DNA of 64,000 nt, from NCBI GenBank assembly GCA_963829055.1, contig CAWHHI010000005.1, forward strand, positions 64,001-128,000, in the 5' to 3' direction. Positions 236 to 63,619 of the stretch are shown one piece after another (the stretch's first letter is position 1; the number at the start of each line of letters is the position of its first letter). The stretch is from an uncultured Gemmatimonadaceae bacterium. Lineage in GTDB: Bacteria > Gemmatimonadota > Gemmatimonadetes > Gemmatimonadales > Gemmatimonadaceae. The notes under the pieces were generated by a model that saw only the letters and a program-made list of their open reading frames with translations, searched no databases and was not told the DNA's origin. Made by a program: the position numbers and the translations under genes.

Positions 236-300
236 ACCGCGCAACACGGATTGCTCTCGAGCACGTGGTCGGCTCCGGTAACCCTAACGTCAAAGCAGCC

Positions 301-783
301 ATGCGTAGAATCCTCGCAATCGCGGTGCTCGTGTCGCTGATCCCTGTTCTGATCGTCATGGGGCAAGCCAGGGCTTCACGAGCGCGTTCGTCGAATAGTG
401 CCGACGTCGAACGAGAGGTTCGGCGCGCGAGTGCCGAGGAAGTCACGGCCCTCGTGGCTCGCGACACGACGGCGCTCGAGCGCATCTGGTCCGATGATTT
501 CGTGGTGACGAACCCGCTCAACCAGCTGGTCGACAAGCGCCAGGTCCTGGCCCTGATCGAAACGGATACGCTGGCCTTTCGGTCATACGATCGACGGATC
601 GAGTACTTCCACAGGTTCGGCGACGTGGCCGTGGTCGCGGGAAGCGAGGTTGTGATCTGGGCCGGACGCATGCCACTCGCCGGCACACCATCGTCTCTTC
701 GGTTTACCGCGGTGTGGCGGGAGCACGATGGGCGCTGGGAGGAGGTGGCTCGTCATGCAAACGTCCTCCCGCAGCCCAGATAG
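301..783 (+). CDS. Secreted NTF2-like (DUF4440-type) protein
   Basis: ATG at 301 with hydrophobic signal MRRILAIAVLVSLIPVLI; SDDFVVTNP, FGDVAVVAG and RFTAVW...GRWEEVARH are typical of DUF4440. Confidence 0.8.
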   Translation: MRRILAIAVLVSLIPVLIVMGQARASRARSSNSADVEREVRRASAEEVTALVARDTTALERIWSDDFVVTNPLNQLVDKRQVLALIETDTLAFRSYDRRIEYFHRFGDVAVVAGSEVVIWAGRMPLAGTPSSLRFTAVWREHDGRWEEVARHANVLPQPR

Positions 784-899
784 CACCGTGAGAGGCGGAT
801 AAGTCACGTCGAATCCAGGCGGGCACGCCGTCACGCGTCCAGAAATCGCCGGCGGCTGATACCCGTGCTCGTCGATGTAATGCCCGATCAATTGCGGGC

Positions 900-1440
900 A
901 GGCGGAGGCATACGATCTCCGGGCACGAGGAGGCGGCGGCTCCGGGCGTGGAGGGTTCATGGCGCGCATTGCCTCGACGGGCAGATTCATATAGAAGACG
1001 CGTTCCGGCACGCCGGGCGCCCCGAAGCGCTGGAGCTGCGTCGCGATGGCGCTCACGATGCGGTGGTCTGGGTGACCCGTGCCGCCGTCGGGCCCCCACG
1101 TGATCACCGCATCGGGACGAAGCCGCGCGAGCTCCCCGGCGATGCGCTCCGTCGCGCGGTCAATGAGCGCGCGGTCGCCGACATAGTCGCCGAGCTTGCC
1201 GTCGGGGAACCCGAGGAGGATCGGTCGCTCGAGCCTAACGCCTGCGTCGCGCAGCGAGCCTCTTCGGCGCGCGGCGGACGAGATCCTCGCCCGCCACGGT
1301 GCTCTCAGGACGGGATCTGGCCCTGCTGGCCGGCGCCAGCACCGCCGCCGGTTGCGATGGTCAGGTACACCTGCACGCCCTCGCGGGCGTAGCGGGCGAG
1401 GATCGGCGCGACGGGGGTCTCGTCATCGGGAGCTCGACAT
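900..1440 (-). pseudogene. Frameshifted/truncated PIG-L family deacetylase
   Basis: Pieces in different frames: APDDETPVAPILARYAREGVQVYLTIAT, RAEEARCATQALG, LRPDAVITWGPDGGTGHPDHRIVS (HPDH motif); both ends degraded, boundaries approximate. Confidence 0.65.
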
Positions 1441-1561
1441 ACAGACGATTCGCATCTCGATCTCACCGCCCGTGTGACACGTCGTAGATTGTTGTCGCTG
1501 GCGAATCCGGCCGACCGTTGAAGGACAGCTACTGTTGAACGCTCACATCGCATCGACCCTC

Positions 1562-2993: not shown

Positions 2994-2999
2994 TAAGCG

Positions 3000-9789: not shown

Positions 9790-10422
9790 ATGAAAACCGC
9801 CATTGCCACTACCGTCCTGGGGCTCAGCCTCGTTGCTGTATCCGCCATTGCGGCGACCAGGACTCCTGCCCGTAGTTCCGCTACCGAGCCCGACCTCGCC
9901 ACTGTTCGCAAGGCGACCGACCGTTTCCGTGATGTGAAGGTCGCGCTCGCCGAGGGCTACATCCGCGACCCCGGCAACATGTGCGACGCGGCCGAGATGA
10001 TGGGGAAGCCCAAAGAGCTTGGCGTGATGGGTATTCATTTCTTCCGCCCCGACCTGCTCGGCATCACGGGTCCGCCGAATCCGCGCGTGAATGGAACCGG
10101 CACGCACACCGACTTCAACAAACCGTCGATCCTGATCTACGAGCCACAGGCCGATAGCTCGCTACAGCTCGTGGCCGTCGAGAACCTCGTGTTCATCAAG
10201 GCGTGGGAGAAGGCCGGGAACATGGCGCCACCTTCGTATCAGGGTGTGCCGTACGATCTTATGGCGGACGATCCCATGACGACGATCGACGAAGCGCACA
10301 ACTTCGAACCGCACTACGATCGGCACGTCTGGATCTACCGCGACAACCCGAACGGCGTGTTCGCGCAGTTCAATCCGAACGCGACCTGCAAGTACCACCT
10401 GGGCGGGGCACACAAGCACTAA
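9790..10422 (+). CDS. Secreted His/Met-rich hypothetical protein, paralogue 2
   Basis: About 80% identical by manual alignment to 8658..9278 over the mature region. Confidence 0.8.
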   Translation: MKTAIATTVLGLSLVAVSAIAATRTPARSSATEPDLATVRKATDRFRDVKVALAEGYIRDPGNMCDAAEMMGKPKELGVMGIHFFRPDLLGITGPPNPRVNGTGTHTDFNKPSILIYEPQADSSLQLVAVENLVFIKAWEKAGNMAPPSYQGVPYDLMADDPMTTIDEAHNFEPHYDRHVWIYRDNPNGVFAQFNPNATCKYHLGGAHKH

Positions 10423-10427
10423 ACTCT

Positions 10428-10672
10428 CGGGAATCGGGAATAGGGAATCGGGAATCGAACTGCAGGAGCTTGTAGCTGGCAGCTCGTGCTGGTCGCTGGT
10501 CGAAATGACAAACCCCGGGGCGCCACGCATTGGCATCCCGGGGTTGTCGTTCCCGACCAGCGACCAGCACGAGCGACCAGCTACCAGCCGCCGGTAGTAC
10601 GTTGAATCGAGTCGGGCTTTTCTATTCCCGATTCCCGATTCCCGATTCCCGATCCCGATTCCCGATTCCCGA
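10428..10672. repeat. Nested palindromic intergenic element with (GGGAATC)n / (GATTCCC)n outer arms and (CTGGTCG)/(CGACCAG) inner arms
   Basis: cgggaatcgggaatagggaatcgggaatc ... cgtgctggtcgctggtcg..acaaaccccggg / cccggggttgtc..cgaccagcgaccagcacg ... attcccgattcccg x6. Confidence 0.85.
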
Positions 10673-10685
10673 CATTGAGGCATCC

Positions 10686-12875
10686 ATGACCCGCGTCCAC
10701 GTTCGCCTCGTCACATTCGTGGCGTGTAGTCTCGTCGCTCTGCCGCTCGTGTCGATCTCTCCACAGACGCCGCCGACGCGCGTCCAGTACCCTGCCACGC
10801 GCACCGTCGAACACGTCGACACCTACAACGGCACCAAGGTCGCCGATCCGTATCGCTGGCTCGAGGCGATCGACAGCACCGGCGTGGCCGACTGGGTTCG
10901 TGCGCAGAACGCGGTGACGATGCCGTATCTCGCGGCGCTCCCCGGACGTGACCTGCTCAAGCAGCGCATCACCGCGCTCTACGACTTCCCACGCACGAGC
11001 GTTCCGTTCTGGGAAGGCACACGCTGGTTCTACACGAAGAACTCCGGACTCCAGCGTCAGAGCGTGTGGTACGCGCGCCTAACGCTCGACGGTCCCGAAC
11101 AGGTCGTGCTGGACCCGAACCAGCTCTCGCCGGACGGGTCCATCGCGCTCTCGGGATTCTCGCCATCTCCGGACGGCAAATCGCTCGCGTACGGGCAGAG
11201 CGAAGGCGGATCCGACTGGGTCACCTACTACGTGCGCGACCTCGGCACGGGGAAGAACACCGCCGACACGGTTCGCTGGGCGAAGTTCAGCGGCGCGTCG
11301 TGGACCAGGGACGGGAAAGGCTTCTTCTACTCTCGTTTTCCGGAGCCCACGAAGGCACAGCAGCTCAAGGTCAAGCTCGAGCACCAGACGCTCTATTACC
11401 ACAAGCTCGGCACGCCGCAATCAGCCGACGTGCGAGTGTACGCGCGGCCGGATCACCCGTCGTGGTTCGTGTTCGGCGGCGTCGATGAATCCGGCCGCTA
11501 CCTGTTCATCAGCACGTCGCCAGGGACGGACAGGACCGAGGTCTACCTCGCCGACCTCGGCGACCCGATGCATCCGAACGTGCGCGCAGCCATTCGGCCC
11601 GTCGTCACCGGGCAGGATGCCAACTACTTCCCGTTAGGCGTGGTCCACGGACGCCTGTACCTGCAGGTCGACAAGGACGCGCCGAAGCGGAAGATCGTGT
11701 CTGCGCCGGTCGCCACACCCGGACCGAGCTCGTGGACGACGGTCATCCCCGAGGGCGCCATGCCCATCGAAGCCGCATCGCTCGTCGCGGGACGCATCGG
11801 GACGCTCTCGCTTCAGGACGTCGCATCGGTGGTGCGCCTGTACTCGCTCGATGGGAAACTGGAACGCGAGGTGCCGATGCCCGGACTCGGAAGCGCGAGC
11901 GGGCTCGTTGGGCGCTTCGATCGCCCGGAGCTGTTCTACAGCTTCACGTCGCCGCTCCAACCGGCGACGGCGTTCGTGTACGACGCCAAGACGAATACCA
12001 GTCGCGCGTTCAACCCACCCAAGCTGACGTTCGACCCCGCGCAATTCGAGACCGAGCGCGTCTTCTATCAGAGCAAGGACGGAACGCGCGTGCCGATGTT
12101 CATCACGCACCGCCGTGACCTCGTGAAGGATGGCAGCAATCCGACGATGCTGTACTCGTACGGCGGCTTCTCGATCAGTGAAACGCCCGGGTTCCGCCCC
12201 GACGTGATCGCGTGGCTGGAGCAGGGCGGTGTGTACGCGGTGGCGAACATCCGCGGGGGCGGAGAGTACGGTGAGGAGTGGCATCGTGCCGGTCAGTTCG
12301 AGCACAAGCAGAACGTGTTCGATGACTTCATCGCGGCGGCCGAGTACCTCGTGCGGGAGAAGTACACGTCGAAAGAAAAGCTCGCGATCAACGGCGGATC
12401 CAACGGCGGCCTGCTCGTCGGGGCGGTGATGACCCAGCGACCGGACCTGTTCGGCGTGGCGGTACCGCAGGTCGGCGTGATGGACATGCTGCGCTACAAC
12501 GCGTTCACCGGCGGCGCGGCGTGGGCTACGGAGTACGGCGCCTCGAGCGACTCGGCGGCGTTTCGCTATCTGCGCGCGTATTCGCCGCTGCATAACGTGA
12601 AGGCGGGTGTCTGCTACCCGGCGACCCTGCTCACGACCGCGGATCACGACGATCGCGTGGTGCCGAGCCACTCGTACAAGTTCGCGGCGACCGTGCAGAA
12701 GGTGCAGAGCGCGACGCCATCGTGTGATCGCCCGGTGCTGCTGCGGGTCGAAGCGCAGGGAAGTCACGGCTACCGTCCGCTCGACCGTCGCATCGCCGAG
12801 CTGGCGGACATCTGGGCGTTCACGGCCTATCATCTCGGAATGAAGGTCCGTCCGCCTAACGCTGTCGTGCAGTAG
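10686..12875 (+). CDS. Prolyl oligopeptidase (S9A), secreted
   Basis: DPYRWLE, YQSKDGTRVPMF, YGGF, NIRGGGEYG, GGSNGGLL (Ser), DHDDRVVP (Asp), GSHG (His); gagg RBS before ATG 10686. Confidence 0.95.
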   Translation: MTRVHVRLVTFVACSLVALPLVSISPQTPPTRVQYPATRTVEHVDTYNGTKVADPYRWLEAIDSTGVADWVRAQNAVTMPYLAALPGRDLLKQRITALYDFPRTSVPFWEGTRWFYTKNSGLQRQSVWYARLTLDGPEQVVLDPNQLSPDGSIALSGFSPSPDGKSLAYGQSEGGSDWVTYYVRDLGTGKNTADTVRWAKFSGASWTRDGKGFFYSRFPEPTKAQQLKVKLEHQTLYYHKLGTPQSADVRVYARPDHPSWFVFGGVDESGRYLFISTSPGTDRTEVYLADLGDPMHPNVRAAIRPVVTGQDANYFPLGVVHGRLYLQVDKDAPKRKIVSAPVATPGPSSWTTVIPEGAMPIEAASLVAGRIGTLSLQDVASVVRLYSLDGKLEREVPMPGLGSASGLVGRFDRPELFYSFTSPLQPATAFVYDAKTNTSRAFNPPKLTFDPAQFETERVFYQSKDGTRVPMFITHRRDLVKDGSNPTMLYSYGGFSISETPGFRPDVIAWLEQGGVYAVANIRGGGEYGEEWHRAGQFEHKQNVFDDFIAAAEYLVREKYTSKEKLAINGGSNGGLLVGAVMTQRPDLFGVAVPQVGVMDMLRYNAFTGGAAWATEYGASSDSAAFRYLRAYSPLHNVKAGVCYPATLLTTADHDDRVVPSHSYKFAATVQKVQSATPSCDRPVLLRVEAQGSHGYRPLDRRIAELADIWAFTAYHLGMKVRPPNAVVQ

Positions 12876-12883
12876 TACGGTAA

Positions 12884-13009
12884 ATGTCGATGGCAGGCGA
12901 TTCGGGCCTCATGGCCAGATTTGGCAAATGCGCAGCGCAACACGCCCGTCACAGCGAGTCTCCATTTGCCAAATCTGGCAATACGGCCCGCCTCGCCTGC
13001 CATCGACAT
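12884..13009. repeat. 126-bp hairpin between convergent genes; same family as 33386-33443
   Basis: atgtcgatggcaggcga pairs with tcgcctgccatcgacat; gccagatttggcaaatg pairs with catttgccaaatctggc. Confidence 0.85.
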
Positions 13010-13054
13010 CTCGTTCGCTGCCATCAACGTCTCGAACGTGCTCCAGCAGTACGA

Positions 13055-15179
13055 TCAGGGCATCGCGGAGTCCCAGCGGATCCGGTAGAGCAGCGCGCGC
13101 TCATCCTCGTACATGGTCTCATACCGCTCGGCGGCGGTGCGCGCGTTGGTGAGCGCGTAGCTCTCCCACGTAATGCCCGGGCCGTAGCGGTTCGCCTGCA
13201 GGAACCGTTTGTCGATGAGGATGTGCGTGATGCCGAGCCGGCGCAGAGCGTCGAACGCGCGCCGCTCCTGTCCCGTCGGGGCGGCAGCGGCGTCGCGAAC
13301 CGCCGGTGAAAAGACCCAGATGCGCGATGCCGTCCCGAAGAAGTGATCGCCCCCGCTCCACGTAAGCACCATCGCGTTAGGCGGCAGCATGCGATTCGCG
13401 GCTCGCCATGCCGCGTACGTCGGTACCATCCGCTGCAGGTACGCATCGCGGGACTCCGCGCCGATCACCACGAGCGGCATCCCGTGCACCACGTGCGTCA
13501 GCCAGCCGGATCCCCCGGCCCAGTCACGGCGCTCGTGCTCGTGCGCCGGAGTGTACGGGGGAAGGTTCAGGATCAGCAGGGCTACGACGAGCACCGTCAG
13601 CGCCACGCGTGCCCGCAGCACCGTAGCCAGTTGCTCGTACCCGACAGCGGCGAGCACCGCGAGCACGGGCGTCACCGCCAGTACCCATCGCATCTGAAAG
13701 CTCGCGATGGGCGACGCCCACAAGGCCATGTACGCGATCACGAAGATGGTGAGCGCGGTGAGCGCACTCACCCGAGGCGCCCCATCGCCAATGTTACGGG
13801 TGCCGCGCCGGAGTCGCAGCGCAGCCAGCGGCACCAGCGCGAGAAACAACGGCCCGAGCGCGCCGCCGTAGCGCTCCTCGTGCATCGTCATGTCCCATGG
13901 GAGCGTGAGCTGGTTGACGGGCGTTCGCGGCCGGCCGAACTGGGCGAAGAAGCGCTCGAGCCCCGCCCGAGCCACCTCGTCCCACCGGTCGGGTGGCCCG
14001 CCGAAGATGCCGTACAGCTCGGGGAACACGGGATTCCCGGTCGCGAGCCACGCGCGGACGTACCACGGCAGCACCACCAGCAGGCTCATCACGCCTAACG
14101 TCGTCGCGGTGCGGAGGGCTGGCAGCAAACGCCGGTCGTCGTGCCAGCGGATGATCAGCGTGCCCGACGCACGCGATCGCGAGCACGATCAGTCCCACGT
14201 GCTTGGTGGCGAGGGCGAAGCCAAGATCGAGCGCCGCGACGACGAGCCATTGGACGCGCCGCGTCTCGCGATGCCGCAACAGCGCGAACACAGCCACCGA
14301 CACGTGAAACGTGAACGCCAGGTCCACGTAGGCCGTCGTTCCTTCCCAGATGATCGTCGGTACGGTGACGAACAGTGCCGCCGCGAGCCACGGCGACGCC
14401 GGCGGCGCGTACCGGCGCGTCAACTCGAACACCACCAACGCCGTCAGCGGCAGCGTGGCGCACTGCAGCAGCGCCGCCGTGTTTGCGCCACCTAACGCCA
14501 GGCCGTACCCGAACCATAGTTCCCACAACATCGGGTAGAGCGACACGTACTCGTGTCGGAGGTCCACGAAGCGGCCATGCTCGAGGAATACCTTTGGGAA
14601 GTGCAGGTGAAACCACAGCGCGTCGTAGTCGACCACGGGGGCCAGCGCCCCGTACAGCGAGAACAGCAGTGCGAGCGCCGCGACCCCGACCCATATCCGG
14701 CCGGCACGTGCGACGTCCGGCCACACCCTCGTCGACGACTTCGGGCCTGGCACCCGAACGCGCAACCAACTCGCGACCGACACGACGAGCACAACGGCGA
14801 TGACCGCGCGGAGCACCCAGGGCCGGTACGCTCCCACGACGGCGAGCACGAACCCGAGACACGCGAGCGACCCGATCCCGACGCTGGCTGCCACCGCAAT
14901 GCGCTCGGCCGCACCCTCGAACTGCCACCGCGCGAATCGCGCGATCGAGAGCCCGGCCGCGATCGCGGCGCCAGTGAGTACGACGGCGCCGAGCAGCGAG
15001 CCAGCGGCGCTGCGGATCGCCTCCCCGAGATACGGCAGCGAGAAGTCGCGTGGCCCGTCCAGCACTGGCCACGGGCCAAGCCCGCCGGCGATCACTCTCC
15101 AGAGCTGTCGGTAATAGAACGCCGCCACCAGCACGACCCACGCGGCACCGACCAATGCCACGCCACGCCGCCGCGTCAT
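13055..15179 (-). CDS. GT-C fold (ArnT/PMT-like) polytopic glycosyltransferase, one frameshift near 14165
   Basis: Many TM segments, DYDALWFHLHFP, TAYVDLA, LATKH and WYVRAWLATGNPVFP across ORFs 13794..15179 and 13055..14128. Confidence 0.75.
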
Positions 15180-15197
15180 GACGGCGTCACGACCACG

Positions 15198-16292
15198 TCA
15201 TGTCAGCGAGCGGCCTAACGCGCGCGCCACCACTCGACGCAACGTGCCGGCGCGCAATGCGCGCAGCCGGCCTAGCAGGCGCTGGATGCGAGTCCCTCCA
15301 CGCCGTGCCCGCTCGGCCGCCATCAGCTCCTCGCGCACGCGACGCCGCGCGCCGATCAGCCACGCGAGCTCGCGCTGATCACGCGCCTCGGCCTCGACGC
15401 CTTCCCAGTAGTGAGCGCCCTGCGTCAGCGCGGCTGCGACGCCCCACGCGCGACCGCCGCGATCGTTCCGCGAGAGCACAAAGCGCTCGAGCCACGGGAT
15501 CGCGTGGCTCATGCCCGGCCAGCGAGGAAAGGGCGAGAGCCCCATCACCTCGTCCACACTCGCCGGATGCTTTCGCGCGAAGATCACGTCCGCTCGCCCC
15601 ATGGAGCGGAACAGCCGTAGCCACTCGAGCGGTTCCTTCTCATAGTGGTGAACACCGATGGCGGTCGGCTCATAGACAAAGTGGAGACCCGCTCGCTGGA
15701 GTCGAAATCCGAGCTCGTAGTCTTCGCGGCCGTATCCGGTGAACGCCGCGTCGAAGCCGCCAAGCTCGACGAGTCGGGCCTTCGCGACGGAGACGTTGCC
15801 CGTCACGAAATCACGGAACGTGGCCTGGTGAGCGTGCGATGCCTTCTCGAGCAGCTCACCGTCCCACCACTCGCGCACCGTCCGGCGGTGCGCCGCCTCG
15901 CCGGGCACCGGCGTCATCGGGACGGCACCCGTCACCACCACGTCGTCGCGGTCCCGGTGGTGGCGCATGTGCGCCGCGAGCAACCCCGGGACGGCGGCGA
16001 TGTCGTCATCGAGCATGACGACCACACGACCGGTCGCCGCAGCGATCCCTCGATTCCGCGCGCTTCCCTGCCCCTGACGAGGTTGTTCGATGAGGCGGAT
16101 GACGCAGGCCGCGCCGCGCGCCACGTCATCGACTGTCGCGCTGGTCGCCGGGTCGGGACCGTCGCACACGACGATGATCTCCACTCGCGTCAGGTCATAC
16201 TCCTGCTGCAACAGCATCTCGAGCGTCCGACGCAGCGTGGCGGCGCGCCCGCGGGTCGGGATGACGACACTGAGATCGAACGACGGATTCAC
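15198..16292 (-). CDS. GT2 family glycosyltransferase
   Basis: LSVVIPTRGR, IVVCDG, ARNRG, MLDDD, GGFDAAFTGYGREDYELG; GTG start overlaps the upstream stop. Confidence 0.9.
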   Translation of the reverse strand: MNPSFDLSVVIPTRGRAATLRRTLEMLLQQEYDLTRVEIIVVCDGPDPATSATVDDVARGAACVIRLIEQPRQGQGSARNRGIAAATGRVVVMLDDDIAAVPGLLAAHMRHHRDRDDVVVTGAVPMTPVPGEAAHRRTVREWWDGELLEKASHAHQATFRDFVTGNVSVAKARLVELGGFDAAFTGYGREDYELGFRLQRAGLHFVYEPTAIGVHHYEKEPLEWLRLFRSMGRADVIFARKHPASVDEVMGLSPFPRWPGMSHAIPWLERFVLSRNDRGGRAWGVAAALTQGAHYWEGVEAEARDQRELAWLIGARRRVREELMAAERARRGGTRIQRLLGRLRALRAGTLRRVVARALGRSLT

Positions 16293-17245
16293 CGCGCGCC
16301 GCCCGGTACGCCACTGCCTCGCGCAACGCGTCGGCGCGCTGTCGCGTACGCGACCGGTCCCCACAGCGAGCCAGCCAGCTCCGCGAGCACGAGCCGAGCG
16401 GGGAGCTCGTCGGGCTCGCCGCGGAGCGCGCCCGGAAGGCGGCGCGCGTGGAATCGCAACGTGTCGAGCGCGAAACGGAACGCGTCGTGGTCGTGATGGC
16501 GCGTTAGGCGATGCGTCCAGAACGCGTACACGCCCACGCCGTACCCGAAGAGCTGTCGTCGGAGCTCGGCGAGCGTACGGCGGTGACGATGATGGACGAC
16601 CGCGCGTGGCTCGTACACGAGGCGCATCCCGGCGTCGATCAGACGGGCGAACATCTCGGTGTCGCCACCGCTGTGGGTCGCCGTTCCAGCGTCGAACGCT
16701 TCGTCGAACAGGCCGACTGCGTCCAGCGCCTCGCGGCGAAACGCCATGTTCGCCCCCGCGCCGACGTGCCCCGCGCTCGACGCCGGGAATGGTCGAACGA
16801 ACTCGCGCCGCTCGTGACGCGGGCGCGTTCGCGTCATGCGTTCGAGGTAGCGTTCGAACAGGCGTTGCGCGTTCGTCTCGAGCTCGAGCGGCAGCATGAC
16901 GCCCGCCATGCCCGCGACGCCCGGCTCGGCGAGCGTCGCCAGCACGACTGCTGCCCAGTCGCGCGCGGGGACGGCGTCATCGTCAGTGAACGCGATGAAC
17001 GCGGCGCGCGACGCAGCGAGCCCCGCGTTCCGCGCGCAGTCGAGACCGGGGCGCGGCTCGAGCACGTATCGCACGCCGGCCGCGTCCGCCACCCGGCGCG
17101 TGTCCCCGGTACGCGGCGCATTGTCGACGACAATGACTTCGAGCTCGCCCACTGTCTGCTCGGCGAGCGCGCGAAGGCAGCACTCGAGATCCTGTGGGCG
17201 CTCGCGTGTGCAGATGATGACCGAGAGTCGCGGCGCCGCGTTCAT
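16289..17245 (-). CDS. GT2 family glycosyltransferase
   Basis: SVIICTRER, VVDNAP, ARNAG, FTDDD, GANMAFRR, GGDTE. Confidence 0.9.
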   Translation of the reverse strand: MNAAPRLSVIICTRERPQDLECCLRALAEQTVGELEVIVVDNAPRTGDTRRVADAAGVRYVLEPRPGLDCARNAGLAASRAAFIAFTDDDAVPARDWAAVVLATLAEPGVAGMAGVMLPLELETNAQRLFERYLERMTRTRPRHERREFVRPFPASSAGHVGAGANMAFRREALDAVGLFDEAFDAGTATHSGGDTEMFARLIDAGMRLVYEPRAVVHHRHRRTLAELRRQLFGYGVGVYAFWTHRLTRHHDHDAFRFALDTLRFHARRLPGALRGEPDELPARLVLAELAGSLWGPVAYATARRRVARGSGVPGGAR

Positions 17246-18954
17246 TGTCCTGCGGTTGCGTGGGAGAGGCGGTCGCGCATCGCTCGCCCGGCCCGGCTTC
17301 GTGTCGCCTCGGCCCGCTTCTGCAGCGACGAGAGGATGCCCTCGGCCAGCTCGCGCTCGGCGCCTCGGTGATGCCTAACGCCCGTTGGCAGTCCGCAGAT
17401 CTGTGGGCCCGCGCTCTCTGCGACGATGTCGCGGAGGCGAACCACGCCCGCGGTGCGCCCGCAGTGCACGAGCGGCGGCGTCGTCACGGGCGATCCCTTG
17501 AACCTGATGTCGAGCCGCACGATGTTCGCGGTTCCCGGATGCGTGAATGGCTCGATCGGCGCGGCAAGGTCGACGACGTGATCGACGACGTGGGATGGTG
17601 CGCGCGTACCCGTGCGTGTGGTGCGACGCGTCACCCGAGGCAATGGGACGCTCGGGCCGAAGCGTCGCGCGATTTCGTCAGCGACAACTCGCGCCTGGTG
17701 GTAGTACTCGCGTCCGCCCGCGAGGCCAACAATCTCCTTTACCACCAGTCGTGTGGAGAGATCACGGTTGAAGAGCGACCAGAGCAGGCGGCGAAGGTGC
17801 CACGTCGCAAGCAACCAGTGGACGAGGATGGCAAATGGGAGCCGCTCTTCCGGATGGTTGAATCGATTTCGCTCCGCGTACGAGCGCATCGCCGTACCCC
17901 AGTTGCTCAGCTGCTCCTCGAGCTCGTGCATGTCGCGCCGGTGCTCGTGTCGGACCAGTGCTGATGGCTCGTACACGAGCGTGCCTCTGGCCTTGATGAT
18001 GCGAAAGAACATGTCGAGGTCGCCGCCGCCTTGCGTCAGTGTCCCGACGTCGAGCGCGGGATCGAAGCCGCCGATGATCGCGAGGGCCGAGCGGCGGAAA
18101 GCCATGTTCGCGCCGGTGCCGAACCGCCCTGAGTTCCCGTACTGGAGCGCGATCGCGTGCGCGCAGGGGTTCGGGTCTCCCCACCAGCGGCGTTCGAACC
18201 CGCGTCCGAAGCCCAGGTAACGTTCGAACTGCAACTGCGGCTCAGTCTCGAGCTCGAGAGGCATAACGAGTCCCGTAACTGCATGCACTTCGGGACTCGA
18301 GTCGAACAGGCGTGCGATTGCAGTTGCCCATCCGCGGTCGACTCTCGCGTCGTCATCGGTGAACGCGATGATGTCGCGTGTCGCCGCCATGATCCCGCGA
18401 TTTCGCGCGCGGTCGAGCCCCGGGGCCGGCTCGTGGATGTAGCGCGCTCCAGCCGGATGCGCGCGCGCGATGTGCTCGGCGGCGCTCCGAGCAGGCGCGT
18501 TGTCGACAACGATGATTTCCAGGTCAGGATGATCGAGACGCTCGATCGCGTCCAGGCAGCCCTGTAGTCTCTCCGGGCGGCCGCGCGTACACACGACGAC
18601 GGTCAGCCCGGACAGCGGCGCGGTGCGAGTGACCGGCGGGCGCGCCAACCGCTCTGCATCGAGCGGCATCGCATCGATCGGCGCTTCCACGCTGTGCCGA
18701 ATGGCGACGCGCACGATCGACGGCGCCAGTCTGTCGAGGATGGCCGCCGTGAGTATCGACGCACTGCACCGATCCTCTACGAGCGGCAACGAGATGACAC
18801 CGACGGATTCGCCGTGCAGGCGGACGAGGGCGTGGACCGACCGGTACCCGGGAGCGTGAACGTCGCCGAGCGGCTCGGCAAGCTCGACGTCGATGCACTT
18901 CGCGGGAACGCGAACGGCATCGAGCTCGCGACGTGTTCGCGTCGTGAACCGCAT
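17242..18954 (-). CDS. GT2 family glycosyltransferase with N- and C-terminal extensions
   Basis: ATG at 18954 overlaps the Wzt stop (TGATG); TVVVCTRGR, VVDNAP, FTDDD, GANMAFRR, GGDLD. Confidence 0.85.
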   Translation of the reverse strand: MRFTTRTRRELDAVRVPAKCIDVELAEPLGDVHAPGYRSVHALVRLHGESVGVISLPLVEDRCSASILTAAILDRLAPSIVRVAIRHSVEAPIDAMPLDAERLARPPVTRTAPLSGLTVVVCTRGRPERLQGCLDAIERLDHPDLEIIVVDNAPARSAAEHIARAHPAGARYIHEPAPGLDRARNRGIMAATRDIIAFTDDDARVDRGWATAIARLFDSSPEVHAVTGLVMPLELETEPQLQFERYLGFGRGFERRWWGDPNPCAHAIALQYGNSGRFGTGANMAFRRSALAIIGGFDPALDVGTLTQGGGDLDMFFRIIKARGTLVYEPSALVRHEHRRDMHELEEQLSNWGTAMRSYAERNRFNHPEERLPFAILVHWLLATWHLRRLLWSLFNRDLSTRLVVKEIVGLAGGREYYHQARVVADEIARRFGPSVPLPRVTRRTTRTGTRAPSHVVDHVVDLAAPIEPFTHPGTANIVRLDIRFKGSPVTTPPLVHCGRTAGVVRLRDIVAESAGPQICGLPTGVRHHRGAERELAEGILSSLQKRAEATRSRAGRAMRDRLSHATAGQ

Positions 18955-19755: not shown

Positions 19756-19756
19756 G

Positions 19757-33884: not shown

Positions 33885-34904
33885 ATGGATACACACCGAA
33901 CACACACGTCGAAGGTTCTGAGCAGGGCGTCGGCCGTCATCACCTGGACGCTCGCCACGTGCGCGCTCGTCGCCTGTAGCTCCGGCGATCGTACGAACGG
34001 CGGCGACTCTGGAAGTGCCGCGGCGTCTCGCGCCAACGATTCGTTAGGCGGTGAGCGCACGCTCGTCGTCTTCAACGCCGGGAGTCTCGCGCTGCCGCTG
34101 CGCGCGGCGCTCGACAGCTTCGCCGCCCGCGAGCACGTGACGGTCCAGCAGGAGAACGCCGGCAGCATCGAGACGGCGCGCAAGCTGACCGAGCTGGGGA
34201 AGATCCCTGATCTCGTCGCCGTCGCCGACTTCGAGGTGATTCCGCTCCTGCTCGTGCCCGAGCACGCGACGTGGTACGCGAAGTTCGCGCACAACCGCAT
34301 GGTGCTCGCGTACGGCGACCGCTCGCGCGGCGCGGCGGAGATCAACACCGGGAACTGGTGGCAGGTGGTGACGCGGCCGGGCGTGCAGGTGGGCCGAGCG
34401 GATCCGAGTCTCGACCCTAACGGCTATCGCACGTTGCTCGTCTGGCAGTTGGCGGAGCGCTTCTACAAGCAGCCGGGCCTCGCGCAACGTCTGCTCGCGA
34501 CGGCGCCGCCGCGCAACGTCAGGCCCAAGGAGGCGGACCTCGTCGGGCTGCTGCAGGCGGGCGAGTTCGACTACATCTGGTCATACGAGTCGATCGCGCA
34601 GGGCATCGGGCTCAAATACGTGACGCTGCCGAAAGAGATCGACCTGAGCGCGGCGAGCGACTCGGCGGCGTATGCGGTGGCGTCGACGCGCGTCGCCGGC
34701 AAGACGCCGCGCGACTCGGTGACGATGCGCGGCCAGCCGATCGTCTACGCGTTCACGGTACCCACGCGCGCGCCGCACGCGGCGCTGGCGGCGAAGTTCG
34801 CGGCGTACCTCGCGTCGGAGGATGGCCGGCGGGTGCTGCGTGGCGCGAAGCTCGACGTGCTGGATCGGTATATCGTGGTGGGGACGGGAGCGCCGACGTT
34901 ATAG
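33885..34904 (+). CDS. Molybdate/tungstate-binding lipoprotein (WtpA/ModA-like)
   Basis: LVAC lipobox; VFNAGSL, AGSIETARK, AVADFEVI, DPSLDPNGYR, YIWSYES. Confidence 0.8.
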   Translation: MDTHRTHTSKVLSRASAVITWTLATCALVACSSGDRTNGGDSGSAAASRANDSLGGERTLVVFNAGSLALPLRAALDSFAAREHVTVQQENAGSIETARKLTELGKIPDLVAVADFEVIPLLLVPEHATWYAKFAHNRMVLAYGDRSRGAAEINTGNWWQVVTRPGVQVGRADPSLDPNGYRTLLVWQLAERFYKQPGLAQRLLATAPPRNVRPKEADLVGLLQAGEFDYIWSYESIAQGIGLKYVTLPKEIDLSAASDSAAYAVASTRVAGKTPRDSVTMRGQPIVYAFTVPTRAPHAALAAKFAAYLASEDGRRVLRGAKLDVLDRYIVVGTGAPTL

Positions 34905-37121: not shown

Positions 37122-37246
37122 TGTCATCCCGAGCGGCAGCGAGGGATCTTCCGTGAAGTATTCGTAGCCTTCGCTGGCTACGATGCCATCACAGAAGATC
37201 CCTCGCTGTCGCTCGGGATGACAATCGCTGCCGCTCGGGATGACAA
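37122..37246. repeat. REP-like doublet with a duplicated right end, between convergent genes
   Basis: tgtcatcccgagcggcagcgagggatctt...aagatccctcgctgtcgctcgggatgaca then cgctgccgctcgggatgaca. Confidence 0.88.
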
Positions 37247-43937: not shown

Positions 43938-46592
43938 ATGCCCCTGCCTGAACCACGCCCATCCGAGCACGCCCTGCCAAGACTCCCGGCCGCCCTGCTG
44001 CGAGCCACGCTCCCGCGCCAGGAACGCGACGAGCTGATGGCAGACCTCGCGGCGGAATTCGCCGGGCACACGATGCAGCGAGGGCCGGCGGCAGCACGAC
44101 GATGGCTGTGGCGACAGGCACTTCACTCCACGCCTTCGTTATTCGCCTGGCAATGGTGGCGCGGTTGGACCGGCTTCGAACCGCGCGCGAACGTCTATCG
44201 GCCCGGAGGGCCCATGCTGAGAACCTGGATCACGGACGCCATGTACGCCGCGCGCCGCCTGCGCGCACGCCCCGGCTTCACTCTCCTGTCGGTGCTCACG
44301 CTCGCCCTGGGCGTCGGCGGCACGGCGGCCGTCTTCGGCATCGCCCGCCCGCTCATCTTCGACCCACTGCCGTATGCGAACGCCGACGAGGTCGGCACGT
44401 TCTGGATGACCGGCAGCTGGAACGAGGAGGAGTTCGTGACGCTGCGCGGGAAGATCCCGGGCTTCCAGCTGGTCGCGAGCTATCGGCCGACCGACGTCAC
44501 GATGCGCACCGGCGACGGACCCACGCGGCTCATTCCCGGCATCGGCACCTCGGCCGAACTGTTCGACGTGCTTGGCGCGCGTCCGCTGATCGGTCGCGGC
44601 TTTCGCGCCGGCGACGACGCGATCGGCGCCGAGCCGGTCGCCGTCATCAGCTACGGACTGTGGAAGGATCTCGGCGGGAATCCGTCGATCCTCGGCACCC
44701 GCCTGACGCTCGATGGCTCACCGCGCACAGTGGTCGGCGTGATGCCGCGCGGCTTCTGGTTCCCGGACCCCACCATTCGCATCTGGATCGCGCGGGCGCT
44801 CAACCCCGAGGGTCATAACGGGAGCTGGACGCTCGTCGGTCGTGTCGCGCCGGGTGTCTCGGTGGAACGCGTCGAGCCGTACGTCGCGCAACTCACGAAG
44901 ATGCTCGGCGAGCGGTGGAAGTACGACGAGAAGTGGGACAAGACTCGCAACGCGTTCGTGACGCCGCTCCGATCCAACCTGCTCGGATCGCTGCGTCCGG
45001 CGCTCGCCGCGACGTTCGTGGCGATGGCGTTGATCCTGTTGATCGCGTGCGCGAACGTCGCCGCGCTGATGCTCGGCCAGGTGGAAGGGCGAACCACGGA
45101 GCTCGCTGTCCGTTCGGCGTTAGGCGCCACGCGGAGACGTCTCACGCAGCAGCTCGTCGTCGAGGCGGTGCTCATCGGCCTGGGAGCGGGACTCGCCGGC
45201 GCCGCGTTGGCGGCCGTGGGATTTCGCGTCCTCGCATCGGCACTCCCGCTCGGTGCGTGGGCCGAGAGTGCAGGGTTCGACTGGACGATGTTTCTCGTCG
45301 CGCTCGGGATCGCCATCCTGGCGGTGTTGCTCGTCGTGCTCGTTCCGCTTACCGCACTCTCACGTGGCGACCTGCGACTCGCGCTCGGCGGCGGCCGCAC
45401 GGGCGGAATTCAGGGCCGAGGGGGGCGTATCGAGCGCGGTCTCGTGGTGGCGGAAGTCGCGCTCGCGATGCTCATCGCATCGGGTGCCGCGCTGCTCGTG
45501 CGCAGCGTCACGAACCTGTACGCGATAGATCCGGGCCTCGAGGCGGAGGGCGTCGCGGTCATCAAGGTCGTGCCGAGCGCGGAGCTGACGGCCGTGCAAC
45601 GTCGTCAGGCGATCGATGAGATGAATGCGGCACTGAGCGAGCTGTCCGGCGTGAAGTCGGCGGCGGCGGTGATGAGACTCCCGCTCGGCGGCGGCGGTGA
45701 CAGCTTCGGCGTGACGATACAGGGGCGGCCGGACATGAAGGAGACGGGCACGTATTTCCGCATCGTCACGCGCGGGTACTTCGAGACGATGGGCATCCGG
45801 CTGCGCGATGGCCGCACGTTCAACACGTCGGATCGGCTGGACGGCGGCGAGATGCCGATCATCGTGAACGACGCGTTCGTGAAGGCGTTCTTCCCGGGCG
45901 AGAACCCGTTAGGCCGAGTGGTGGGCGGTGGGTTCAACGCACCGCAGCGGATCATTGGCGTCGTCGCGAACGTCGCCGAAGGGAAGCTGACCGACGAGCC
46001 CGAGCCGGTGCGCTACTTCGTGTCCGGCGTGGCGCCGTGGTTCTCGCCGAGCGCCGCGCTGGTGATCCGGACCGCGCGCGCCGGGGATGCCGCGACGGTG
46101 CTGGACGCCGCGCGGCGCACCGTGCAGCGGGTGGCGCCGAACTTCGCGATCCAGGAGACCACGACGATGTCGCGGATACTGGACACCGCGGTCGGCCCGG
46201 CGCGACAGGTCATGTCGCTGTTGTCGCTGCTGTCGGGTCTCGCGCTGGTGCTGGGAGCGATCGGGATCTACGGCGTCATCTCGCACTTCGCGTCGCGTCG
46301 CAAGCGCGACTGGGCGATCCGTGTCGCGTTAGGTCTTCCCGGCACGCACGTGATCGGACACGTCGTGAGGCAGGGTCTGGTGCTGGTGGTGATCGGCGTG
46401 GCGTTAGGCGCCGTCGGGACGATCGCGCTCACGCGACTGTTGACGTCGTTCCTGTTCGGTGTGAAGCCGGTCGATCCGCTGGCATTCGCGGCGGCGAGCG
46501 CGGCGCTGCTCGTGATCGGCGTGGTGGCGGCGTTCGTCCCGGCGTGGCGGGCGGGAATGGTGGATCCGGCGCTGGCGCTGCGGGAACAGTAG
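43938..46592 (+). CDS. ADOP-type duplicated MacB/FtsX ABC permease
   Basis: RRLRARPGF, TLALGVGG, LLIACANVA, ELAVRSALGA, GIYGVISH, AIRVALG, VDPALALRE. Confidence 0.92.
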   Translation: MPLPEPRPSEHALPRLPAALLRATLPRQERDELMADLAAEFAGHTMQRGPAAARRWLWRQALHSTPSLFAWQWWRGWTGFEPRANVYRPGGPMLRTWITDAMYAARRLRARPGFTLLSVLTLALGVGGTAAVFGIARPLIFDPLPYANADEVGTFWMTGSWNEEEFVTLRGKIPGFQLVASYRPTDVTMRTGDGPTRLIPGIGTSAELFDVLGARPLIGRGFRAGDDAIGAEPVAVISYGLWKDLGGNPSILGTRLTLDGSPRTVVGVMPRGFWFPDPTIRIWIARALNPEGHNGSWTLVGRVAPGVSVERVEPYVAQLTKMLGERWKYDEKWDKTRNAFVTPLRSNLLGSLRPALAATFVAMALILLIACANVAALMLGQVEGRTTELAVRSALGATRRRLTQQLVVEAVLIGLGAGLAGAALAAVGFRVLASALPLGAWAESAGFDWTMFLVALGIAILAVLLVVLVPLTALSRGDLRLALGGGRTGGIQGRGGRIERGLVVAEVALAMLIASGAALLVRSVTNLYAIDPGLEAEGVAVIKVVPSAELTAVQRRQAIDEMNAALSELSGVKSAAAVMRLPLGGGGDSFGVTIQGRPDMKETGTYFRIVTRGYFETMGIRLRDGRTFNTSDRLDGGEMPIIVNDAFVKAFFPGENPLGRVVGGGFNAPQRIIGVVANVAEGKLTDEPEPVRYFVSGVAPWFSPSAALVIRTARAGDAATVLDAARRTVQRVAPNFAIQETTTMSRILDTAVGPARQVMSLLSLLSGLALVLGAIGIYGVISHFASRRKRDWAIRVALGLPGTHVIGHVVRQGLVLVVIGVALGAVGTIALTRLLTSFLFGVKPVDPLAFAAASAALLVIGVVAAFVPAWRAGMVDPALALREQ

Positions 46593-46599: not shown

Positions 46600-46776
46600 G
46601 GGGACGGAGGGCGGAGGGCGGAGGCAGGACGGAGCGGTGTCATCCCGAGCGACAGCGAGGGATCTTCTGCGAACGTCTCGTGGCAAATCTGGCCACGATG
46701 ACGTTCGAGAAGATCCCTCGCTGACGCTCGGGATGACACCGCTCCGTCCGTCCCGCCGTCCGCCCTCCGCCGTCCG
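46600..46776. repeat. REP-like doublet (46638-46738) with inverted GGCGGAG/CTCCGCC arms, between convergent genes
   Basis: ggacggagcggtgtcatcccgagcgacagcgagggatcttct...agaagatccctcgctgacgctcgggatgacaccgctccgtcc. Confidence 0.88.
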
Positions 46777-53653: not shown

Positions 53654-53656
53654 CAT

Positions 53657-56789: not shown

Positions 56790-56889
56790 CCGGACGGAAA
56801 CCGGGGTAAACCAGTGAGGATCCGGAGTTCGGATAGCGCCTAACGAGTGAGTCGGGTCGGCTGCTATCGCCGTTCCAACGGCTCGCGGA

Positions 56890-60446: not shown

Positions 60447-60457
60447 GACGGAGGCCG

Positions 60458-60662
60458 AAGGAAGGAGGCCTAGGAAGGAGGAGGACGGCGGCGGGCGGAT
60501 GGCGGACGGCGGAGGCAGACGGTCATCCCGAGCGGCAGCGTTGTCATCCCGAGCGGCAGCGAGGGATCTTCTCTGAAGTAATTGTGGCCGATCCGGCCAC
60601 GAGTGCGTCACAGAAGATCCCTCGCTGACGCTCGGGATGACAACGGCTCGCTCGGGATGACA
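60458..60662. repeat. REP-like doublet with both ends duplicated (60522-60662), preceded by AGGAAGG and GGCGGAC 7-mer runs, between convergent genes
   Basis: gtcatcccgagcggcagcg x2 ... agaagatccctcgctgacgctcgggatgaca + gctcgggatgaca. Confidence 0.88.
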
Positions 60663-60671
60663 CCACGCGCG

Positions 60672-62807
60672 TTAGGTACAGCCTGCCTGACGCCGACCCT
60701 GACCTGCCGGCTCGGGTGCCGGCGTTGCGGCACGCGGCCAGACGTTGTCGCTCGGGTCACGGTCCGGGAATCGGCAGCTCGGGTCGAGACGGATGCGCTC
60801 GATCGGGCGCGAGCCGAAGTCCAGCACCGCGTCGAACGTCTTCGCGCCCGCGAACCACACGTCCACCGGGTACGTCACGATCGCCGTCAGGCTGTCCTTC
60901 ATGACCGCGTTCGCATCGGGCGGATCGCCTGCTTCCCGGGCTCGAACTTCACCTCCAGCACCACCGGCGACGGCATCTGGCCGTCCTGCCTAACGGTGAC
61001 CGTCGTGCGCCGCCGCCGTATTCGACACGCTCCGCTGGATCGAGCCGTCCACGCTCTCCGTCGTGAACAGCCAGTAGTACCAGAACCAGCCGAGGTCGCG
61101 CTTGAGCGCGTTGCTCATGAAGAACATGTAGTCCCACGGCGACGGATGCTTGAACATCCACGCCTTCGCCCACTCGCGATGCGCGCGCTGCACCGCGCTG
61201 TCACCGACGATGCCGCCCAGCATCGACAGCATGAGCGGCGTCTTGCTGTACGTCGTGAAGCCGTAGAACTGCGGGCCGTCGTAGTTCGCGTTCCACATCA
61301 TCGGCGGCTCGGCCTCGTTGCCGCTCGTTCTGCCGTACGACTGGCCCAGTCCGTCGAAGTTCGGCGCCTGGCTCGCCGCATCCGCATCGGAGAGGATGTT
61401 CATGTACTGATTGAACCCCTCGTCCATCCAGCCGTACCACGTCTCGTTGTTGCTGACGATCATCGGCCACCACTGGTGGCCCGTCTCGTGGTCGGCGGCG
61501 CCCTTGTTCGAGTTGATCACCATCGGGTACTCCATGCCCGCGCTCGGTCCATCCTGCAGCGTGAGCTGCGGGAACTGATACGGGAACCACTGCTTCGAGT
61601 AGAACTCGAGCGCGTGACGCGCGACCTGGCCCGCCGTGTCGTAGAAGCGGCGCGCGATCCGGCAGATAGACCATGGTGATCGGGATCGGGCCCTTCCCCG
61701 GGATCGTCGCGCGCGTCATCTCCCACACGAACTTCTTCGCCGTCGCCCACGCGAAGTCGTTCACGGTGTCGGCGACGAAGTGCCAGACGAGGCGGTCGCC
61801 TTCTCCGCCAGCGGTCGGCGCGCCGCGCTGCGTCGCCTGACCTGGCCCGACCTCGTCGGGGCCGACGATCGTCGTGATCTGTCGTCCGACGAGCACGCGC
61901 TTGATGCCGCTCGCGCGCGTTAGGCGTGAGCACCTCCTCCGGATTCTGCAGCACGCCCGTGCCGCTCACGATCCAGCCGGCCGGCACGTCGAGCCGCACG
62001 TCGAAGCGGCCGAAGTTGTTGTAGAACTCCGACGGACCGAGGTAGAGCTCGGTGTCCCAGCCGCGGAGGTCGTCGTACACCGCGACGCGCGGATACCACT
62101 GCGTGGGCTGATACAGCGTGTCCGCCCAGCGCTGCGTCATGCGATGCCCGACGCCCGGACCACCTGGGATCTTGTGGTTCCACTCGATCTCGAGCGTGGT
62201 CGTGGAGCGCGGCGCGATCTTCGTCGGCAGGTTGACGCGTGCCGTGGTGGTGCGGAGCCCGAGGATCGTCGGCTGGTTAGGCACCTGCGCATTCTGCGCG
62301 GCCGCCGCGGCCTGCGCGGCGCGCGCCCCGTCGCCGCCGGCAGGCGGTGGCCCCGCGAGGTTCACGCTCTGCCCGTTGATGGTCATCCGCGTGATGACCA
62401 TACCGTCCGTCACCTCCGACGGCACCCACGTGGCGGCCTGCGGCGTGTTGCCGAGGAAGATGTTGGGATCGAGCCGCAGCTCGATCTGGCCGAGCGAGTC
62501 GGGGCTGTTGTTGTGCAGCATGACCGTCTCGTGTCCGGTGATGCGCGACGTGGTCGGCGTCGAGCCGGGCGTTGATCGTGTAGTCGGTGCGAATCTGCCA
62601 GTAGTTCCGTCCGGGCCGACCGGTCGAATCGCGGGTCCCGGCCGCGTAGGCGCGGCGGATCGTGTTGGTGATCGGGATGTCGCGCCGCACGGCACGTCGT
62701 GGGACGGGCGGCGTCGCCTGAGCGACCAGCAGGCGCGGCGGAATCGTTAGGCCCGCCGCAAGGATCGCGAGCGGGACAAGCAGCGTTCGGGGGAGACGCG
62801 CGGGCAT
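60672..62807 (-). CDS. M1 family metallo-aminopeptidase, several frameshifts
   Basis: GRPGRNYWQ, QWYPRVAVYDD, GMEYPM, HETGHQWW (HEXXH), WMDEGFN, FKHPSPWD. Confidence 0.88.
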
Positions 62808-63109
62808 GGCGGTGTCGTGAAGTTGAACGAGGGTGCGAACCTGGACGGGCTACGAGCCACGCCAGAGGATACCGCACGGACGCTCCCTGCGGGAGCACGG
62901 CTATGGCGTCAACGGCACGGTGTCCGACCCCAAGGACCTCGACAGTCTGCGCACCGCGATCCGCTTCTACAAGGTGGCCGAGTCGGCGCAGGCCAGCGAT
63001 ACGACGTCCTGTTTCATGGGGGCCACGAAGGTGCCCTGCCACTGACGAAACACGGGACATGGTGACGGGGTGTTGCTTCATGGGCGGCCAAATGATTTAT
63101 TGGTCGCCC

Positions 63110-63619
63110 ATGATTATCACCCTGCGACTCATCCATATCCTTGCCGGCGTGTTCTGGGCCGGCACCGCGATCTTCACCGCCGTCTTTCTCATCCCGAGCA
63201 TCCGCGCGCTCGGCCCGGGTGGCGGCCCGGTGATGCAGCAGATCGCGGGCGTGCGTAAGCTCCCGCTGTATTTCATGGGCGCCGGCATACTGTCGATCCT
63301 CTCGGGAATCGGCCTGTACTCGAAAGCGTCGGGCGGGTTCTCGAACGCCTGGATGCACTCGGGCCCCGGTGCGACGTTCGGCATCGGCGCCGTGTTCGCG
63401 CTCGCGGCCATGGTCGTCGGAATGGCCGTTGCGTCCCCGACGGCGAAACGCGCGTCGGAACTCGCGGGTACCATTCACGGCGCAGGCCGGCCGCCGTCAC
63501 CGGAGCAGATGGCCGAGATGCAGCGGCTGCAGGTGAGGATGGGGAAGGCATCGGCGTTAGGCGCCGGACTGCTCGTGCTCGCGACGGCGGCGATGGCCAT
63601 CGCGCGCTACATGCCGTAG
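63110..63619 (+). CDS. Four-TM hypothetical membrane protein
   Basis: MIITLRLIHILAGVFWAG...ILSGIGLY...AAMAIARYMP. Confidence 0.75.
   Translation: MIITLRLIHILAGVFWAGTAIFTAVFLIPSIRALGPGGGPVMQQIAGVRKLPLYFMGAGILSILSGIGLYSKASGGFSNAWMHSGPGATFGIGAVFALAAMVVGMAVASPTAKRASELAGTIHGAGRPPSPEQMAEMQRLQVRMGKASALGAGLLVLATAAMAIARYMP

Follow-up and report, generated by a model that had tools for sequence, protein, structure and literature searches.

What keeps one short word in place at about one copy per kilobase, inside genes and against their codon choice, in the chromosome of an uncultured bacterium? The question is raised by a stretch of 64,000 nucleotides from an uncultured member of the Gemmatimonadaceae (G000:C5:64001-128000; hereafter, the window), part of an assembly, G000, of 7.78 Mb in 20 contigs with 66.7% G+C and a completeness of 86%. 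The best matches to one protein of the window in named records are metagenome-assembled genomes (MAGs) of Gemmatimonadales or Gemmatimonadota, at about 50% identity. The word is the nonpalindromic heptamer CCTAACG, which mostly extends to the octamer GCCTAACG. How the word is built, how strong the bias is, how well it is maintained, and how it is distributed among lineages can be read directly from the genomes and are described first; the force that may lie behind it is then weighed.

The original prediction, made by eye from the letters of the window, gave about 66 heptamers, 38 on the plus strand and 28 on the minus strand, and our recount agreed with it at the coordinates listed: 66 exact copies of CCTAACG, about one per kilobase, spanning 283..63561, of which 51, again the predicted figure, extend to GCCTAACG. 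The remark that near-words are scarce also holds (CCTAAA and CCTAAG once each and CCTAAT never, next to 71 CCTAAC), while the G+C content given as about 69% has to be lowered to the measured 67.2%. In dinucleotide shuffles of the window, the heptamer occurred 3.25 ± 1.82 times, with a maximum of 8, and 66 was reached in none of 100 shuffles; the octamer occurred 1.40 ± 1.19 times, and none of the 100 shuffles came near 51.

The word is not a peculiarity of the window. Genome-wide, CCTAACG is present in 6391 copies (0.82/kb; 3154 on the plus and 3237 on the minus strand) on all 20 contigs, and the 5004 copies of GCCTAACG make it the top over-represented 8-mer of G000. An order-2 Markov model expects 249 heptamers and 102 octamers, and when the words are masked in the training of an order-3 model, the expectation is 90, so that the heptamer is in excess by about 70-fold. 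For codon-level analyses, genes were called with our own codon-likelihood script, which gave 7378 calls; these take up 77% of the genome, a share lowered by apparent frameshifts in the assembly. Inside these calls lie 52 of the 66 copies in the window, as expected from the claim that most copies are in coding sequences. We then shuffled synonymous codons within each gene ten times, keeping the protein and the codon counts of that gene. The word was seen 2046 times in the sense direction, compared with 251.5 ± 17.2 in the shuffles, and 2180 times in the antisense direction, compared with 106.8 ± 8.7. The enrichment thus survives the codon-preserving null model that had been proposed as a check, at 8 to 20 times the shuffle.

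The logo of the 6391 sites reads RCCTAACG, with G in 78% and A in 13% of the sites at position -1 and a weak avoidance of G after the word. Beyond positions -1 to +7, the information is at background, and a longer repeat around the word was therefore ruled out. All four stop-free frames are occupied (CCT-AAC 1246, CTA-ACG 800, TTA-GGC 1631, and GTT-AGG 549), which places the signal in the DNA and not in RNA or protein. In 4339 confident genes, we determined the occupancy of the word, defined as the share of protein-permitted sites that carry it:

Pro-Asn-G sites: word in 1041 of 1677 (62%)
[S/P/T/A]-Leu-Gly sites: word in 1415 of 4917 (29%)
Leu-Thr sites: word in 670 of 8235 (8%)
Val-Arg sites: word in 450 of 10674 (4%)

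Occupancy drops along these classes as the number of needed changes rises. Of the TTA codons in the confident genes, 58% sit within the word, which genome-wide also supplies 312 of 924 TAA and 242 of 1906 TAG stop codons. Several words of the window show how these readings look in single genes, including the two that had been reported in the peptides DPNGYR and RSALGA, both of which are as stated:

11632..11639, minus strand: word in a prolyl oligopeptidase gene (Pfam S9) that the orthologues in the relatives G003, G004, and G005 also carry
11078 and 12855: two further words of the same prolyl oligopeptidase gene, not kept in the G003, G004, and G005 orthologues
13375..13381, minus strand: word that is polymorphic in the field, with T for G at 13380 giving CGTTATG
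34416..34422, plus strand: word as CCT-AAC-G (Pro-Asn-Gly; DPNGYR) in a solute-binding protein gene, of the class that is 62% occupied genome-wide
45118..45125, minus strand: word as CG-TTA-GG (Ala-Leu-Gly; RSALGA) in a MacB/FtsX-type permease gene, using TTA
60989..60995, plus strand: word giving the TAG stop of a minus-strand gene at 60990-61535 (own call)

The specificity is sharp within the core. One-off variants at positions 0 to 5 are at expectation (ratios of 0.6-1.8), with CATAACG (4.75) and CCTAAGG (2.85) as outliers, and variants of the last position are enriched, 12-fold for A, 3.8-fold for C, and 3.4-fold for T. GCATAACG, the complement of the CGTTATG found as a variant at 13375..13381, has 820 copies genome-wide, 4.75 times the expectation. 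The second commonest form of the word is GCCTAACA, with 462 copies, 12 times the expectation, and a G before it in 94% of cases. Both share the preference of the word for G at -1, and with these flanks, they represent variants that are tolerated or else products of decay. An enrichment of CGTTATG is seen in the sample from G021 as well.

The layout of the word follows neither replication nor transcription. Across 143 bins of 50 kb, 840 of 1751 words (48.0%) lie on the plus strand where the GC skew is positive and 1241 of 2445 (50.8%) where it is negative, and word polarity shows no link to GC skew (Spearman -0.15, p = 0.08), although the skew itself tracks gene strand (rho = 0.45). On contig C16, which has a clear skew switch, the strand counts are 159:201 and 248:246. 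The original prediction had noted this lack of strand polarity in the window, and it extends to the whole genome. Sense and antisense copies are similarly frequent (2046 and 2180). Word density is 1.21/kb outside our gene calls and 0.70/kb inside, and it peaks in the first 100 nt 3' of stop codons. Gaps shorter than 200 bp make up 6.4% of all gaps compared with 15.3% for an exponential distribution, the lowest share in a group of 40 similarly frequent 7-mers to which the word itself belongs, and very long gaps are in deficit as well.

To follow the word between genomes, 240 kb of G005, a genome of the same genus, was aligned to G000, which yielded 132 kb at 77.7% identity. Orthologous sites, whose conservation had been named as a check, were indeed conserved: 55 of the 100 words of G000 and 55 of the 112 of G005 were kept, compared with 21.4% of all 7-mers, and G000 words were thus kept about 2.5 times better than average 7-mers. 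With G004 (30 kb aligned), 7 of 22 and 7 of 13 words were kept in the two directions at a baseline of 25.5%. In G014, which belongs to another genus, 5 of 17 G000 words were kept (baseline 13.5%), and only 5 of 67 G014 words were kept in G000. The corresponding figures were 3 of 33 and 3 of 10 for G010 and 2 of 35 and 2 of 3 for G021. Sites at which the word is not kept mostly carry the common-codon spelling; in the G005 comparison, CCGAGCG was found 12 times and CCTGACG 10 times. From the figures within and between genera, it follows that words are held within the genus and turned over between genera.

The word was also found in DNA assembled independently. At least half of the sampled 31-mers of window positions 10001-20000 are present in 20 public sequencing runs from 17 studies, mostly rhizosphere metagenomes from 2016 to 2024, and one from freshwater sediment. 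Contigs from four of these studies align to the same positions over as much as 3.4 kb at a time and differ from the window at few places, so that the stretch stands in public contigs, as the original prediction had asked of independent assemblies; the library type of these runs is not on record and was probably short-read. Among the 40 differences listed of 314 between public contigs and the window, one falls in a word, at 13380, where T is found in the contigs of runs X2 and X6 and as a minority in X1 and X5.

We next counted the word in related genomes, with the reversed word as control. These relatives are MAGs that are 70 to 100% complete, so that a feature not found in them need not be absent, and kin among them are not independent samples. 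All seven genomes of the genus of the window carry the octamer, in 2501 to 5112 copies per genome. The richest genome is G014, with 6360 octamers in 5.1 Mb. Further genomes above the reversed-word control are G010, G019, G020, G036, G038, and G040, while 27 of the 41 relatives are below it; G008, G009, and G017 are among the word-poor genomes. In a phylum survey of 301 genomes, 14 of 199 genomes of this order were above control, whereas the 102 genomes from other orders all failed to exceed it. The word-rich genomes of this survey include G240 and G297 (about 950/Mb), G304 (596/Mb; 100% complete in 4 contigs), and, in a second family, three members of a single genus. The enriched lineages are thus scattered within one order at 37 to 1250/Mb, density varies more than 30-fold among related genera, and a single genus spans about 950/Mb (G240 and G297) and 13/Mb (G293). 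Four genomes flagged as unpublished were used singly: G013 as a word-poor row in the counts and in the integrase and ComEC surveys and as one tree leaf, and G085, G124, and G203 as counts; no conclusion rests on these four.

A quick IQ-TREE phylogeny of rpoB with 36 rows and SH-aLRT support places the rich genomes at several positions with poor ones between them. G001, G002, G003, G006, G007, G010, G015, G016, G019, and G024 have no usable rpoB and are left out of the tree, and only part of the sequence was available for G000, G005, G040, and G293. A group with a support of 95 unites the genus of the window with G014, G165, G020, and G021 (54-1247/Mb). The poor G293 (13/Mb) is sister to G240 plus G297, G304 stands alone, and G036, G038, and G040 fall in a third family (52-187/Mb). 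Within the rpoB alignment, distant rich lineages carry the word at the same columns, where poor relatives have common codons such as CGCTCGG. No dialect of the word appeared in 120-kb samples of G010, G014, and G021, in each of which the same word was the top or a leading one.

Taken together, the force behind the word acts on DNA, is blind to the strand, works by substitution, is sharp in its specificity, and depends on the lineage in its degree, and its strength suffices to occupy the majority of those sites that cost least. Among known processes, such a profile is matched only by the uptake-bias drive of the uptake signal sequences (USS) and DNA uptake sequences (DUS), and for this reason, we rank a drive of the USS/DUS type first, as a tentative explanation that is quite possible but short of probable. 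RCCTAACG would then be a genome-wide identity word upheld at the DNA level. A part of the natural-transformation machinery, presumably a receptor in competent cells, would prefer double-stranded DNA with the word, fragments of relatives that bear it would be taken up and recombined more often, and this uptake bias could write the word by point substitution into sites that tolerate it, namely, silent codons, stop codons, and spacers. Known uptake sequences are described as nonpalindromic, without orientation bias, and located in genes for 35 to 65% of copies, with an excess in noncoding DNA and growth by point mutation (PMC1939737). A transformation toolkit is encoded in G000, comprising ComEC, DprA, three PilT-family ATPases, and a ComEA-like helix-hairpin-helix protein beside PilB/PilT/PilC genes. 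The pilus and competence cluster at C12:484-500 kb contains PilB/PilT/PilC-type parts only, with no receptor candidate among them.

Several observations weigh against this explanation. ComEC is present in 40 of the 41 relatives, word-poor ones equally included, so that the toolkit does not discriminate between rich and poor genomes. We know of no Gemmatimonadota in which competence, biased uptake, or a receptor for it has been established. While known uptake sequences drift between genera, no dialects were seen in G010, G014, and G021, and the enriched lineages are parted by word-poor ones. With one-off core variants at expectation, the cutoff is sharper than in Haemophilus, for which 764 one-off copies are given next to 1471 perfect ones (PMC1939737). 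Moreover, conservation between genera is mixed, as the two directions of the G014 comparison illustrate. Finally, the uptake model alone does not explain why the word is identical to the core of another DNA element, the attC site of integrons, a match beyond what the original prediction had seen.

The attC sites end in RYYYAAC (R'') and GTTRRRY (R') (PMC3053210; PMC12901181), and the word, as GCCTAAC plus G with the complement C plus GTTAGGC, fits these ends letter for letter, the purine preference at -1 included. The consensus is fitted by 32 of the 16384 possible 7-mers. G000 encodes an integron integrase (C20:208008-208985, minus strand; TIGR02249, 266 bits at a cutoff of 265) and about a dozen attC-like hairpins that start with GCCTAACG and end with its complement CGTTAGGC, most of them on C20 at 103-206 kb and a few elsewhere. 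The region C20:103000-209000 forms a loose chromosomal integron, with about 10 attC sites of one family over about 100 kb, which lie on the 3' side of intI among ordinary-looking genes. A conserved 31-nt hairpin, GTTAGGCGGCGAGGC...CTAAC, occurs on the same contig at 120190, 185473, and 207951. Integrons are on record in Gemmatimonadota (PMC8618304). In the word-poor relatives G027 and G025, words stand on four contigs about 550 bp apart on one strand, and each one inspected there starts an attC site of about 95 nt; one of these arrays lies beside intI, and GCCTAACA matches the other attC end. These are large cassette arrays with very uniform attC sites (L203/L204 at G027:C95:1-26000, L202 on G027:C80, and L205 on G025:C3), the first 20 kb of G027:C95 containing 24 attC starts.

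The words of G000 as a whole are nevertheless not attC sites, even though they have the R-box sequence. Only about a dozen attC sites were recovered when pairs were screened by spacing, folding, and arm-duplex energy and when an attC arm of the genome itself served as a fuzzy query. Paired ends 57-141 bp apart were found 81 times in attC order compared with 67 times in the control order among 7103 hexamer words, and the excess of attC-order pairs with good arm pairing was about 13. Fewer than 0.5% of the words are in attC-like pairs, and more than 99% are solitary, in ordinary genes, without L boxes or a partner; only the sites on C20 at about 103-206 kb place the word beside intI in a cassette array. 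Genes do not end in a cassette-like manner either, as a downstream partner was found for 5 of 312 genes with a word-borne TAA compared with 464 of 6795 other genes. Nor does the presence of the integrase track word density. An integrase above the cutoff was found in 24 of the 41 relatives, mostly word-poor ones, and not in the word-rich G002, G004, G010, and G020. In G014, it lies in three frames; it is present in the poor G293 in two to three copies, as in its rich congeners, and in the rich G240, G297, G304, and G165. On the basis of pair counts, gene ends, and integrase distribution, the integrase alone does not explain the words. A separate 143-aa open reading frame (C4:2850-3281, minus strand; L128) consists of the N-terminal integron-integrase domain only (TIGR02249 positions 2-104, 107 bits), which may be a remnant or may bind DNA as a domain on its own; a similar IntI N-terminal piece stands at a contig start in G002, and among the rows listed, only G000 and G002 have one.

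How, then, could one sequence serve both? It is conceivable, though we consider it improbable, that the word is a double-stranded attC R box whose reader is the integrase or one of its derivatives; it could serve, for example, as a cassette landing site (attG-like) or as a signal shared by cassette traffic and chromosomal DNA. In its broader form, which we regard as similarly doubtful, a single 8-bp signal would serve integron and chromosome, and a reader with the specificity of the attC R box would, where active, have driven thousands of solitary words into ordinary genes; this reader might be an integrase-derived protein or else a receptor for uptake that is adapted to the ends of cassettes. 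The fit of the word including its -1 position, the integrase and hairpins of G000, the attC starts of G027 and G025, and the match of GCCTAACA to the other attC end all speak for such a reader, and one word in scattered lineages suits a conserved, pre-existing specificity. The identical word in these lineages, together with its identity to the attC end, suggests that within the order, the specificity of the reader is either an old trait held in common or a mobile one. The small share of paired words, the rarity of cassette-like gene ends, and an integrase that is frequent in poor relatives, spread over three frames in G014, and present in two to three copies in G293 all count against it. Integrase recombination, moreover, restores its target and, as far as we can infer, offers no known route to point substitutions; a 7-mer match to one of many motifs could also be due to chance. 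A chromosomal DNA-binding protein or self-marking site, upheld by selection at each site rather than by drive, is an unlikely reading, which includes nucleoid organization and the shielding of the cell's own DNA from a nuclease. A sharp specificity of 7 to 8 bp would suit such a protein, as would the deficits of close pairs and very long gaps, the maintenance of the word within the genus, and the presence of three conspicuous blocks of 31-50 kb that lack the word. Selection would, however, have to beat rare codons at thousands of sites, with 58% of TTA in the word, and one would hardly expect a housekeeping function to differ in density by a factor of over 30 from one related genus to another. 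To our knowledge, no nucleoid or self-marking system has thousands of exact, unpolarized 8-mers in genes.

Repair bias and motor signals fare less well. Methyltransferase-linked or very-short-patch repair systems can skew short words genome-wide, as has been proposed for the highly iterated palindrome HIP1 and is weakly seen for Dcm/Vsr, and a patchy distribution would suit a mobile enzyme. We nonetheless consider a by-product of this kind very unlikely. Vsr (PF03852) turned up in 4 of the 41 relatives, none of them word-rich, and in 0 of 7 members of the genus, and G000, at its 86% completeness, had no match to the DNA-methylase families PF00145, PF01555, and PF02384. The D12-class methylase of G000 is split over two frames, and its homologues do not follow density, being present in the rich G240 and G297 and the poor G293 and not found in the word-rich G304 and G014. 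Most gains, furthermore, need two changes of different kinds, such as CGCTCGG to CGTTAGG. A Chi-like or KOPS-like signal (FtsK-orienting polar sequence) of a recombination or segregation motor is hardly credible. Chi of Escherichia coli is likewise a nonpalindromic, over-represented 8-bp word, but its enrichment is few-fold, far below the approximately 70-fold found here, and the lack of polarity on C16 and across the skew bins, where the skew does track gene strand, refutes this reading. Of the three readings offered by the original prediction, uptake or self-recognition fits every pattern that we tested, a methylation-linked mark is left with no candidate enzyme, and a nucleoid-protein site is possible at the low probability given above.

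The assembly itself deserves comment. The single bases at window positions 14163 and 19059 are missing from the contigs of all four public studies, and four genes, those for rpoB, a histidine kinase, an M28 peptidase, and the D12 methylase, are split over two frames (C19:47991-52509, L212, and L213 are among the loci), signs that G000 carries single-base indel errors. Its contamination estimate is 3.95%. The word-free or single-word blocks of 31-50 kb lie at contig ends (C6:5440-55038, C6:591808-623330, and C11:1-44055), have a G+C fraction of 0.66-0.73, and encode the housekeeping genes FtsK, DAHP synthase, TrpBA, GlnA, IlvD, and GreA; the FtsK has a second copy on C16 with only 47% identity. 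These blocks look like foreign DNA or chimeric assembly joins.

Two further kinds of repeat were noticed in the window. A tandem heptamer, TTCCCGA, is present in about seven copies at 10620-10672, just 5' of the prolyl oligopeptidase gene; near-identical runs occur at many places in congeners, and public contigs there have a summed depth of about 700 to 2000x. Palindromic intergenic elements of about 100 bp are located at 37123-37244, 46639-46737, and 60522-60661, with ends TGTCATCCCGAGCG and inner arms GAGGGATCTTCT. No 12-mers occur more often in the genome than their end words, with about 670 copies. The elements are similar to repetitive extragenic palindromes or miniature inverted-repeat transposable elements, and their outline recalls the NTS repeats of Neisseria (PMC11893778).

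In agreement with the original prediction, which knew of no description of the word, our literature search turned up none, nor any of uptake sequences in the phylum. Sequence-specific DNA uptake is described in PMC1939737 for only two families of host-associated Proteobacteria. If an uptake-like word does operate in these widespread, mostly uncultured rhizosphere Gemmatimonadota, it would point to self-preferring gene exchange in soil. The word would also be a simple marker with which to bin such genomes and to recognize DNA in them that is foreign or chimeric, and its patchy, graded distribution provides natural contrasts for tracing the reader gene, such as about 950 and 13/Mb within one genus. 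The identity with the attC core is a concrete, testable bridge from transformation to cassette exchange. Should a single signal serve both, gene cassettes and self DNA would share one recognition tag, transformation would be tied to cassette traffic, and the chromosome would hold dense potential cassette landing sites.

Comparing the word with known systems, the closest likeness is to the USS of Pasteurellaceae and the DUS of Neisseriaceae (PMC1939737; PMC3630211; PMC7811141). Like these, it is a short, nonpalindromic word at about one copy per kilobase, equally frequent on both strands and without orientation bias, located in genes in the frames that tolerate it and in excess outside them, of point-substitution origin, and common to related genera, as it is found in 7/7 genomes of the genus and in other genera. 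However, the phylum and the word differ, only 7 to 8 bp are specified without a flanking consensus, no dialects were found, and the density is 30-fold variable and patchy on the tree. The integron attC core (R'' RYYYAAC, R' GTTRRRY) shares GCCTAAC/GTTAGGC with the word, and the attC sites of G000 and of its poor relatives begin with the 8-mer, whereas more than 99% of words are solitary in ordinary genes and the integrase does not follow their density. Chi and the KOPS/AIMS octamers (architecture imparting sequences) are also nonpalindromic and over-represented, and the known ones are read by DNA motors; those are polarized by replication and few-fold enriched, whereas the word here is unpolarized and about 70-fold enriched. 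HIP1 (GCGATCGC), the hyperabundant, methylase-linked 8-mer palindrome of cyanobacteria, whose function is unsettled, likewise occurs in genes against codon choice, while the word of Gemmatimonadaceae is nonpalindromic and is tracked by no methylase.

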